NCBI GenBank assembly: GCA_947626855.1
Contig: CANQTT010000002.1
Location: 1-54,179 of the forward strand
Direction of reading: 5' to 3'
Length of the DNA: 54,179 nt
DNA from: an uncultured Bacilli bacterium
GTDB lineage: Bacteria > Bacillota_I > Bacilli_A > RF39 > UBA660
Shown: one piece after another, positions 25,467 to 26,309 of the stretch
Layout: each line of letters begins with the position of its first letter
Position numbering within the stretch: position 1 is the stretch's first letter
The notes under the pieces: model-generated
Seen by the model: the letters and a program-made list of their open reading frames with translations, nothing else
Told to the model about the DNA's origin: nothing
The model's database searches: none
Position numbers and translations under genes: made by a program

Positions 25467-26309
25467 TTATTTAACTTTTGTCCCTTCTTCTACTAAAGGG
25501 GCACCTTCTAAAAATTTATTTTTTAAAATTCTAAATTGTTGATAATTGTATTGAATTACTAAATCTTTCCATGCATCATAAGCTTGGATAATGGATAAAA
25601 CACGAGAATCATCTTTAATATTTGGATTTTCAATCGTGACTAAAAGATATTCTAAATAACTACTCATTCTTTCTGTTTGTTCTAATATTTCCTGTCTTAA
25701 TTGTTCGATTTCTTCCATTGACTTTTCAGGTATATCTATCTCCGACAACTTCATGATATATTCTTGACCAAATTTTTTCTTAAAGGATAAATCTGTTTCT
25801 TCAATCTCCACTCTGGAAGGTACAAATAAAAATTCATCCTCCCCACCGCCAATTTCATCTTCCACACTCATCCAAGGAACATTACCCTCTATCAGTAGAA
25901 CTGCCCTTTCCGATTCATCTGCCCCTTTACTTTCTCTTGAAAAGATTTTTGAAAATGTCCTTGTCTGAAGAATACTAGAAGAGGTAGAAAGAAAGGAACT
26001 ATTTTCATTTTGAAGAGAGGAAATTAATGAGGTCTGAGTTCCTCTATACAATGGCTTAGGTGCTTTTACACATCCGTTAGCGACATATCTTTTTAAAATA
26101 GCAGAATATAAGTATTGTATATCTCTTAAGCTTTCTTCCATTTTTTCTTTTGTTATAGGAGGATAACCGCCCTTTCTTGAAAGATTAATTCTCCTCTCGC
26201 TTTCCATCCCTTTTCGCAATAAAGAATTTATAATCCTAAAATCATTTTCTTGATATTTTTGAATAGCTTCTATCTCTTCTGGTGTTAAAGAATAATCCAT
26301 ATTTATCAT
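25467..26309 (-). CDS. ADP-ribosyltransferase (R-S-E class, exoenzyme/VIP2-like fold) without a signal peptide
   Basis: LTPEEIEAIQKYQENDFRIINSLLRKG (Y..IN..LR NAD-pocket helix), LYRGT (Arg), FLSTSSS (STS), GEDEFLFVP (ExE; codons at 25833-25841). About 105-aa helical C-terminal extension. Alternative start ATG 26300 has the better RBS. Confidence 0.7.
   Translation of the reverse strand: MINMDYSLTPEEIEAIQKYQENDFRIINSLLRKGMESERRINLSRKGGYPPITKEKMEESLRDIQYLYSAILKRYVANGCVKAPKPLYRGTQTSLISSLQNENSSFLSTSSSILQTRTFSKIFSRESKGADESERAVLLIEGNVPWMSVEDEIGGGEDEFLFVPSRVEIEETDLSFKKKFGQEYIMKLSEIDIPEKSMEEIEQLRQEILEQTERMSSYLEYLLVTIENPNIKDDSRVLSIIQAYDAWKDLVIQYNYQQFRILKNKFLEGAPLVEEGTKVK

Follow-up and report, generated by a model that had tools for sequence, protein, structure and literature searches.

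A solitary, divergent ADP-ribosyltransferase predicted in an uncultured Bacilli bacterium, and its longer relatives in mobile contexts

Contig CANQTT010000002.1 of the uncultured Bacilli assembly GCA_947626855.1 carries, in positions 1 to 54,179 (the whole stretch analysed, referred to here as the window), a gene that predicts an ADP-ribosyltransferase (ART) with neither an export signal nor an immunity gene in the window. The locus raises the question of what such an enzyme would act on, how it would leave the cell, if it does so at all, and how its producer tolerates it. ART toxins are a well-known class of weapon and another ART is unsurprising by itself. The family to which this one belongs, however, sits in uncultured gut Bacilli with reduced genomes whose biology is almost unknown, and its architecture is unusual, with a cytoplasmic N-terminal ART head followed by a private helical hairpin and, in relatives, by a conserved tail linked to genes for SUKH and Zn-ribbon proteins.

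The explanation favoured here, given a probability of about 0.6 as a whole, is that the protein is an R-S-ExE ART from a family of conflict effectors and that the window holds a bare, maintained copy of the head. The narrower assignment, to an R-S-ExE mono-ADP-ribosyltransferase of the C3/VIP2/ExoS-like class made in the cytoplasm, is well supported by sequence comparison and a structural model. The original prediction, made from the nucleotide sequence of the window, had placed a 280 amino acid (aa) open reading frame (ORF) at 25467 to 26309 and read it in the same way; both the ORF, which lies on the minus strand, and the reading stand. Residue numbers below follow the 280 aa form.

25467..26309, minus strand: ART coding sequence, 280 aa counted from the first ATG, from the ORF list
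25740..26297, minus strand: predicted ADP-ribosyltransferase domain, residues ~5-190, three N-terminal helices and then a beta core
26043..26045, minus strand: codon of R89 (LYRGT, strand 87-92), the NAD-binding arginine of the R-S-E triad by conservation and alignment
25980..25988, minus strand: codons of S108-T109-S110, the STS motif (strand 107-110) by conservation and alignment
25833..25841, minus strand: codons of E157-D158-E159, the ExE motif at the end of a loop like the ADP-ribosylating toxin turn-turn (ARTT) loop and the start of strand 159-162, read from the sequence
25506..25718, minus strand: C-terminal helical hairpin, residues 198-268, conserved across the family and without a structural or Pfam match

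Evidence for an ADP-ribosyltransferase

The motifs begin at residues 26 (IINSLLR), 87 (LYRGT), 108 (STS, to 110) and 156 (GEDEF), so that the set proposed in the original prediction (R89, STS 108-110, E157/E159 and an N-terminal Y..IN..LR helix) is found in full and in place. R89, S108, E157 and E159 are invariant in 11 close homologues (41-61% identity). An exhaustive profile search found 77 representative relatives. Conservation of the same four residues is at least 90% over 47 of the relatives, although identity to the query is only 19-30% for many of them. Ten positions are near-invariant in the 47-sequence alignment (E12, Y19, N28, Y68, K73, R89, S108, E157, E159 and P164), taking in both the R-S-ExE set and the N-terminal helix, and the window copy retains all ten.

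The window protein taken singly falls short of the Pfam family ADPrib_exo_Tox (PF03496), with a score of 14.4 bits (E 0.024) over residues 4-39 only against a gathering score of 23.4 bits. It gave no match in an NCBIfam scan and none in a single-sequence search of the PDB. A profile search had been proposed as a check on the prediction. The family profile, run against PDB sequences, found only Vis (E 0.016) and SpvB, with the YRG, STS and ExE motifs in register. Relative P0017 passes the PF03496 gathering score at 25.1 bits; PF03496 is matched by 6 of the 47 relatives (E<=0.01) and a Scabin-like Pfam family by 2 of the 47. Alignment of the family profile with an ART repeat of P0076, a bona fide ART (PF03496 E 4e-52, PF01129 E 1e-55), gave an hhalign probability of 96.5% and an E value of 9.3e-10 over 135 columns, with all motifs aligned.

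Structure prediction, the other check proposed, points the same way. An AlphaFold model built from 11 sequences had a predicted local distance difference test (pLDDT) score of 73, and ARTs made up nearly all of its top 50 PDB matches. The AlphaFold2 (AF2) model built from 47 sequences reached a pLDDT of 91.2 and a predicted template modelling score of 0.89. With this model, Foldseek returned 29 PDB matches at E<=1e-3 with a probability of 1.00, all of them ARTs (best E 6.7e-5), and ranks 1-41 were all R-S-E ARTs, with noise (E>=0.3) beyond. These include CDTa, VIP2, C3bot1, CPILE-a, BECa, iota Ia, Certhrax, Plx2A, C3larvin, the SdeC mART, SpvB, HopU1 and ExoS/T. In the viral structure library BFVD the matches were phage ART domains. 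The modelled fold has the split beta-sheet core and N-terminal helical region of an ART. Its first core strand carries an arginine preceded by an aromatic residue (Y88-R89, strand 87-92), its second carries S-T-S (S108-T-S, strand 107-110), and the ARTT loop ends in (Q/E)-x-E (E157-D-E159, with E159 on strand 159-162). R89 is aligned with the YRG, S108-T-S with the STS, and E157-D-E159 with the EAE of Vis and P0076.

Because the catalytic residues are conserved, and because the profile-profile alignment, the Pfam matches of relatives and the fold search agree, the window protein is assigned as a genuine, very divergent member of the R-S-E ART clade. It lies inside that clade and outside the present Pfam model. 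No member checked has a name in any source, and the family is unannotated, being missed by the current Pfam and NCBIfam models. It appears to be a new family-level branch of the ARTs, with its own C-terminal domain, of an enzyme class that is itself known. The ExE motif is the arginine-type signature of the ART family. The ratio of nonsynonymous to synonymous substitutions (dN/dS) is ~0.14-0.20 across the ART domain and ~0.2-0.66 across the C-terminal part, values indicating that the window gene is under purifying selection and maintained.

C-terminal hairpin and predicted cytoplasmic synthesis

The original prediction described about 105 aa of helical sequence after the catalytic core as an uncharacterised domain. 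The domain is indeed without a Pfam match, and Foldseek found no non-ART PDB match for it above noise, but the helical part is shorter than proposed. In the AF2 model it is a hairpin of ~70 aa, formed by helices 198-225 and 235-268 (pLDDT 90-98), and ~12 disordered residues complete the C-terminus. The spacing between R89 and the STS motif, 19 aa, had been called shorter than in C3 or VIP2. It is short but not exceptional, as the corresponding spacing is 25 aa in Vis and 22 aa in the ART repeats of P0076.

No hydrophobic segment is present in the protein, where the maximum Kyte-Doolittle mean over 19 residues is 0.59; the signal peptide of the neighbouring lipoprotein-like protein scores 1.56 on the same measure. 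There is likewise no signal peptide, and no Sec signal or LXG/WXG leader, as had been noted. The N-terminus is acidic and non-hydrophobic and belongs to the folded domain itself, with a helix at residues 10-30 (pLDDT >90). With no hydrophobic segment, the protein is predicted to be made in the cytoplasm without an export signal.

Longer relatives and the genes that accompany them

Homologue loci were found in gut metagenome-assembled genomes (MAGs) labelled as uncultured Bacilli or Mollicutes. Two of the loci, L011 and L015, are labelled Bacteroidaceae bacterium; their gene content and synteny are those of Bacilli loci (L004 and L028, respectively) and the labels are probably binning errors. 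The ART gene is the only gene common to the window and any homologue locus. No homologue of either gene flanking it in the window, one for a giant surface protease and the other for a lipoprotein-like protein, occurs at any of these loci.

Most close relatives are 345-358 aa long and continue past the hairpin into an extra tail of 70-90 aa that ends in ...TGRRMM, the endings recorded being ...NVEHTGRRMM, ...ESTGRRMM and ...ENSGRRIM. Short forms of 272-281 aa also recur in the family (P0010, P0015, P0016). In 3-4 independent and mostly mobile contexts the ART gene is followed by an orthologous SUKH gene (SMI1_KNR4/SUKH_6) and then by a 72 aa Zn-ribbon ORF (CPNC...CNKC). The cassettes are as follows.

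L001-3: ART-SUKH-Zn-ribbon in a region encoding a TraG/VirD4 coupling protein as well as serine recombinases, which split a penicillin-binding protein gene
L010: ART-SUKH-Zn-ribbon after a P-type ATPase gene
L012/L013: ART-SUKH-Zn-ribbon after a Mob_Pre relaxase gene
L026, L032-36: small element of resolvase, Mob_Pre, ART, three small ORFs, SUKH and Zn-ribbon, beside ybeY-era-recO

SUKH starts 18 nt past the ART gene in L001 and 39 nt past it in L010, and the resolvase/Mob_Pre element beside ybeY-era-recO was found on 17 contigs. Five contexts are without SUKH, namely the window, L004/5/11, L007-9, L014/27 and L015/28. One of these has an evident history. The flanks of L007 and L001 share 83-90% DNA identity, and ~1 kb of L001 is replaced in L007 by ~108 bp; the deletion took the ART tail, SUKH and Zn-ribbon and left a 281 aa ART with all catalytic residues. 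As L007 has lost these parts yet kept an intact ART, the short form without partners is viable and derived in at least one lineage besides that of the window, and the accessory module (tail, SUKH and Zn-ribbon) is separable from the ART head. The longer relatives and their linkage to SUKH and Zn-ribbon genes on mobile elements reframe the questions of self-protection and export that the original prediction had raised for the window gene by itself.

Several further features of these loci were recorded. At L016:8001-8328 an ART homologue is broken into ORFs of 61 and 74 aa with 60-85% identity to the L012 ART, and is an apparent pseudogene. The three conserved ORFs between ART and SUKH in the resolvase/Mob_Pre element (L012:5519-6744, L032:4779-5983) predict two ~165 aa paralogues, each with two hydrophobic stretches that are probably membrane-spanning, and a 73 aa soluble protein. 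None of the three has a match in Pfam, PADLOC or PHROGs, and they could bear on the release of a leaderless toxin. In L020/L021:1-8800, the gene for P0015 (273 aa), a distant member of the family, shares 11 nt with an unannotated gene for a 328 aa protein, and the neighbourhood, with a SLFN-g3 helicase/nSTAND3 protein and MazG-like and NUDIX genes, resembles a defence island. The downstream partners of distant members (328, 143, 92 and 77 aa) have no recognisable domain.

Other associations were considered and set aside. A Zn-ribbon-PrsW gene lies upstream of the ART homologue in L004/L011, and PrsW-dependent export was rejected because Zhang et al. (PMC3482391) class such fusions as signalling peptidases rather than toxin exporters and because the window has no such gene. 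His_Phos_1 and NUDIX genes are neighbours in both L001 and L018; the two His_Phos_1 genes are not orthologous (E 0.34), none is present in the window, and a functional link was rejected. An origin in phages or plasmids was rejected since no relatives of the ART were found by tblastn against INPHARED (50,697 phage genomes) and PLSDB plasmids, in IMG/VR contigs or in PHROG. Membership of a known defence system was also rejected, the sole PADLOC match being non-significant (E 0.0046). Taken across the loci, comparison shows a family from uncultured gut Bacilli that appears to behave like a conflict effector.

Possible linkage of SUKH to the tail

SUKH is normally read as an immunity protein specific to the toxin head. 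Several findings suggest that in this family it may follow the tail instead. SUKH orthologues form 52 clusters against 12 for ART in the same database and are thus about four times more diverse. In one SUKH locus (L029-31) the same Zn-ribbon gene follows and the gene before SUKH predicts a 410 aa protein (L029:4722-5954) that ends in ...NVERTGRRMM, as the long ART homologues do. Its N-terminal head is unannotated (VLYRG...YMSD...GDEW). The possibility that it is a cryptic member of the ART family was rejected, as the head gave an hhalign probability of 0.2% against the family and no PDB match. The SUKH of L029 is nevertheless 88% identical to that of the L012 ART locus, whereas the SUKHs of ART loci share 62-83% with each other. 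Immunity specific to the head should co-vary with it, and this SUKH does not.

The idea of a variable head rests on two head types, and a search with a tail profile, tried as a way of counting head types, added only fragments of the 410 aa type. Short ORFs resembling C-terminal fragments of the 410 aa protein (P0143-P0149) occur on several long contigs. The SUKH partners themselves come in forms of 180, 288-297 and 395-396 aa (L010:9117-10307 and L013:6098-7285 versus L001:11060-11602), the longest of which adds a Cys-rich N-terminal region (CNKCG...) and a ~100 aa C-terminal extension. In the survey of polymorphic toxins, where SUKH is a recognised immunity superfamily (PMC3482391), Tox-ART-RSE pairs with Imm41 or ADP-ribosyl glycohydrolases and SUKH occurs mainly with nucleases and deaminases. 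No characterised ART-SUKH pair was found in the literature searched.

A broader and tentative interpretation, which taken jointly is unlikely to hold in all its parts, posits an undescribed effector family in which the polarity of polymorphic toxins is reversed and interchangeable N-terminal heads precede a constant tail ending in ...VE(H/R)TGRRMM that is recognised by SUKH and the Zn-ribbon protein; the window protein would be a bare head of this family. The two heads so far would be the ART and an unrelated domain of ~240 aa, and small elements of uncultured gut Bacilli, integrative or mobilizable, would carry the tail along with the SUKH and 72 aa Zn-ribbon genes. The two partner proteins might then form a delivery adaptor or a neutraliser directed at the tail, providing a new route for the delivery or control of leaderless proteins, and tail-less copies such as that in the window might be domesticated enzymes with a non-self target. 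If SUKH does follow the tail, bacteria of the Gram-positive type would have a new way of controlling or delivering leaderless effectors, and caution would be called for in the automatic annotation of SUKH as cognate immunity.

Comparison with known ART systems

C3-like exoenzymes and binary toxins (C3bot1, CDTa, iota Ia, C2-I, VIP2, Certhrax) share the ART fold and provided the top Foldseek matches, with a TM-score of up to 0.51 for C3bot1 when normalised to C3bot1. They also share the N-terminal Y..IN..LR helix, and the aromatic-R, STS and (Q/E)xE motifs occur in the same order on equivalent strands. However, identity is only ~13-17%. The window protein is a single ART domain beginning at residue ~5, with no signal peptide and no N-terminal adaptor (pseudo-ART) domain as in the binary toxins (VIP2/iota/CDT/C2), and no gene resembling a pore-forming B component was found among the window genes scanned. 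It differs from C3 in having ExE in place of QxE (asparagine-specific) and no Sec signal peptide, and from the whole group in its C-terminal hairpin and the shorter R-to-STS spacing. The hint of C3/VIP2-like exotoxin biology in the original prediction is therefore not borne out. Vis of Vibrio splendidus, ExoS/ExoT, SpvB and HopU1 share ExE and a single catalytic domain with the window protein, and Vis also has a short R-to-STS spacing. These proteins are secreted by Sec and type II or by type III secretion systems and act on eukaryotic proteins; the window protein has no export signal or secretion system, its host is of the Gram-positive type and its relatives are tied to SUKH and mobile elements.

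Antibacterial ART toxins with immunity proteins are known, including Vorin/VorinI (PMC7764402), RhsP2 (PMC12340436) and the Tox-ART-RSE group (PMC3482391). The likeness lies in the tight linkage, seen here in the relatives, between the gene for an ART toxin domain and a small gene that follows it, and this linkage suggests a role in bacterial conflict. In contrast, the known antibacterial ARTs are C-terminal domains of carriers of the type VI secretion system, type VII secretion system (T7SS) or Rhs kind, whereas here the ART is N-terminal and no carrier is present. The pairing with SUKH and a Zn-ribbon protein is not listed for Tox-ART-RSE in the survey (PMC3482391), there is no co-variation between partner and head, and in the window the ART gene has no partner at all. 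Measured against the classical polymorphic toxins (Zhang et al. 2012, PMC3482391), the protein has the reverse polarity, with the ART at the N-terminus and no trafficking domain detected by Pfam or NCBIfam, and the downstream gene in the window encodes a signal peptide rather than co-varying immunity. ART-type toxin-antitoxin (TA) systems (DarT-DarG, ParT-ParS, RES-Xre) are distinguished by the lack of a macrodomain or Xre/ParS-type neighbour in the window or the homologue loci, and by the fold matches, which are to the C3/VIP2 class and not to DarT or RES. Phage ARTs (T4 Alt/ModA/ModB and MuF-ART head proteins; PMC9503650) are effectors carried by mobile elements and gave the best matches in the viral structure library, both as ART domains fused to minor capsid or head-morphogenesis proteins and as Alt-like enzymes. 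Unlike them, the window family has no relatives in phage genomes, IMG/VR, PHROG or PLSDB, and there are no phage genes in the window. Since the defining features of each were examined and not found, the protein is not a member of the binary toxins, C3 exoenzymes, classical polymorphic toxins, ART-type TA systems or phage Alt/MuF enzymes.

Possible roles of the window protein

Under the favoured explanation, the site formed by R89, S108-T-S and E157-x-E159 would bind NAD+ and transfer ADP-ribose to a target, and by analogy with other ExE enzymes the acceptor would most likely be a protein arginine. Integrative or mobilizable elements carry the long-form relatives together with SUKH and Zn-ribbon genes, and the window copy is the bare version, with head and hairpin and without tail, SUKH or Zn-ribbon. 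A conflict effector, as opposed to a housekeeping enzyme, would be consistent with the position of the cassettes beside TraG/VirD4, serine recombinase/resolvase or Mob_Pre genes and of a distant member beside the SLFN-helicase/nSTAND3 gene. The head alone is probably not lethal to its producer, because a sister lineage lost the tail, SUKH and Zn-ribbon yet kept the enzyme under purifying selection. Tolerance could be explained by a target outside the producer (a competitor, a phage or an animal host), by a requirement for activation, or by protection encoded elsewhere. The solitary window copy offers a clean experimental handle, a 277 aa enzyme (its probable length, see below) with obvious catalytic residues and no partner genes.

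Several observations weigh against this explanation. The TM-scores of the Foldseek matches are moderate, at 0.33-0.39 by query length and <=0.51 by target length, and the window protein itself lies under the PF03496 gathering score. About half of the close-clade contexts lack SUKH even where the full tail is present (L004/L011, L014/L027, L015/L028), and the ART-SUKH-Zn-ribbon cassette is accordingly not obligatory. The gene lies in an ordinary core-chromosome context with no mobile-element, defence or secretion genes in the window, with which an endogenous role may be compatible. Finally, the window covers 54 kb only, and an immunity gene may exist elsewhere in the genome.

The last point bears on the proposal that the gene is the orphan toxin of an intracellular toxin-immunity module (TA-like, addiction or abortive infection) with a SUKH elsewhere in the genome protecting the cell. 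SUKH directly 3' of the ART in L001 and L010, carriage of the cassette on mobile elements, the greater diversity of SUKH, from which extra copies must exist, and the standing of SUKH as an immunity superfamily would all fit. This is nevertheless unlikely, as SUKH and head do not co-vary (the L029 SUKH being so close to that of L012), L007 lost SUKH with its ART intact, and the window has neither a SUKH gene nor a PADLOC match. A regulatory ART that reversibly modifies a protein of its own cell, in the manner of DraT, would suit the core-chromosome context, the promoter-like element of the gene (below), the purifying selection and the lack of an immunity gene. It would be expected less readily of a gene that is patchy, occupies a different locus in each genome, is often on mobile elements and is pseudogenised in L016, and no ADP-ribosylhydrolase or macrodomain partner occurs in the window or the homologue loci; this role is judged very unlikely. 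That the window copy is a decaying, inactive remnant truncated by loss of the tail, SUKH and Zn-ribbon genes is highly improbable. It is shorter than most close relatives, the partner genes are absent and a fragmented copy does exist in L016, but the reading frame is intact with all ten family-invariant residues, the truncation falls exactly at the domain boundary, short forms recur (P0010, P0015, P0016), dN/dS is well below 1, and the gene is served by a promoter-like element and a Shine-Dalgarno sequence of its own.

Two further alternatives concern the target and the chemistry. Host-directed toxins are the best matches in structure, the family is carried by gut MAGs, and the upstream neighbour predicts a 2413 aa ZmpA/B/C-like M26 protease typical of mucosal colonisers. 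An exotoxin similar to C3 or ExoS could thus be imagined, one that leaves the cell on lysis or through an unknown exporter, ADP-ribosylates a eukaryotic protein such as a GTPase or actin and is functionally linked to the IgA-protease-like neighbour, and the lack of an immunity gene would fit a target absent from bacteria. It is considered quite unlikely, given that signal peptide, translocation domain, adaptor domain and B component are all missing, that a terminator lies between the ART and protease genes, that the protease and lipoprotein-like neighbours are missing from all homologue loci, and that the relatives are tied to genes of the bacterial-conflict type (SUKH) and to mobile elements. 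As to chemistry, ART-fold proteins include the NADase Tne5 (PMC13285283) and the RNA-targeting RhsP2 (PMC12340436), and the two relatives that match the Scabin-like Pfam family would be in keeping with an enzyme that is mainly an NAD+ glycohydrolase or that ADP-ribosylates nucleic acid (RNA 2'-OH or guanine). The closest matches in sequence and fold (Vis, SpvB, C3, CDTa, iota, ExoS/T) modify proteins, and ExE is of the arginine type, which makes this chemistry doubtful.

Gene start and transcription

The signals around the ART gene and its immediate neighbour are as follows.

26349..26380, minus strand: predicted intrinsic terminator of the upstream protease gene, 11 bp stem, GAAA loop and U-run, overlapping the protease stop codon
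26332..26340, minus strand: predicted promoter-like element of the extended -10 type, TGGTATAAT, past the terminator and ahead of the start codon
26306..26312, minus strand: Shine-Dalgarno-like AGGATGA, 8 nt 5' of the ATG at 26300, read from the sequence
24665..25426, minus strand: downstream signal-peptide/lipoprotein-like gene, 253 aa, with a hydrophobic N-terminus

An ATG at 26300 (M4) would give a 277 aa product opening MDYSLT. It is probably the start of the protein, because the homologues open with MDYSLT and AGGATGA sits 8 nt before this ATG; the called protein in public data (P0001) is likewise 277 aa. The ART gene begins 69 nt past the stop codon of the protease gene, one less than the 70 nt first given, and the 40 nt to the lipoprotein-like gene is as described. 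The protease terminator has a fold energy of -15.2 kcal/mol (z = -3.06) that was equalled in 0 of 200 shuffles. As this terminator and then the extended -10 element separate the two genes, the ART gene appears to be insulated from the protease gene, with its own predicted promoter-like element; inspection of the sequence found no good -35 element to accompany TGGTATAAT. The 40 nt gap on the other side contains GAGGAGAA and no terminator (folding z = 0.24), and the 253 aa gene has a strong Shine-Dalgarno sequence; the ART and 253 aa genes are probably co-transcribed. In this low-GC gut bacterium, the local GC content at the ART gene (0.30-0.33) equals that of the surroundings, and a signature of horizontal transfer was ruled out.

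Other genes in the window

The rest of the window is core chromosome, with rpoB/C-sized genes and genes for ribosomal proteins, including L19, a YlqF-type GTPase, signal peptidase, inositol monophosphatase, NrtR and a two-component system. No T7SS, type IV secretion system or phage machinery was found in the 54 kb window, nor any SUKH gene; tblastn and phmmer found no remnant of SUKH, the Zn-ribbon or the tail, and no immunity gene for the ART is present, in agreement with what had been noted for its vicinity. The 253 aa gene was considered as an immunity gene and rejected, as its product has a signal peptide and a lipobox-like N-terminus and would be extracytoplasmic; it also lacks any SUKH or Imm domain, and the gene occurs at none of the homologue loci. 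No functional link between this gene and the ART is known.

A bacteriocin-type C39-peptidase ABC exporter is encoded at 41066-43111 (minus strand), adjoined by an unannotated 146 aa ORF (40657-41097, minus strand), and a separate Peptidase_C39_2 protein at 52038-52850 (minus strand). Export of the ART by the ABC transporter was rejected since the ART has no double-glycine leader, and is further opposed by its N-terminal LTPEEIEAIQKY, which forms a structured helix of the ART and can be aligned with Vis and SpvB. At 38676-39350 (minus strand), 12 kb from the ART gene, is an NrtR-type regulator (NUDIX and NrtR winged helix). The NrtR family senses ADP-ribose and controls NAD metabolism, and its proximity to the ART is probably coincidental.

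Five ORFs, all on the minus strand, had no Pfam match at the thresholds used: 74-1309 (411 aa), 18231-19133 (300 aa), 33851-35452 (533 aa), 45455-46279 (274 aa) and 47833-49266 (477 aa). The upstream protease gene (26379-33620, minus strand) predicts a giant 2413 aa surface protein that combines a signal peptide and a second hydrophobic segment with a type I dockerin module at residues 240-291 and a region of the ZmpA/B/C-like M26 IgA-protease-type metalloproteases (Peptidase_M26_N, E 1.6e-26; NCBIfam ZmpA, E 1.4e-54, which is far under the equivalog cut-offs). It is unusual for a Zmp-type protease to carry a dockerin. A pocket of low GC content (0.23-0.27, against ~0.31 in the flanks) at 22685-24000 (minus strand) contains a DUF6870 gene (23257-23541), a 102 aa ORF without a Pfam match and ~300 nt of non-coding sequence, and may represent a small insertion, with the YlqF-type GTPase gene on one side and the inositol monophosphatase gene on the other.

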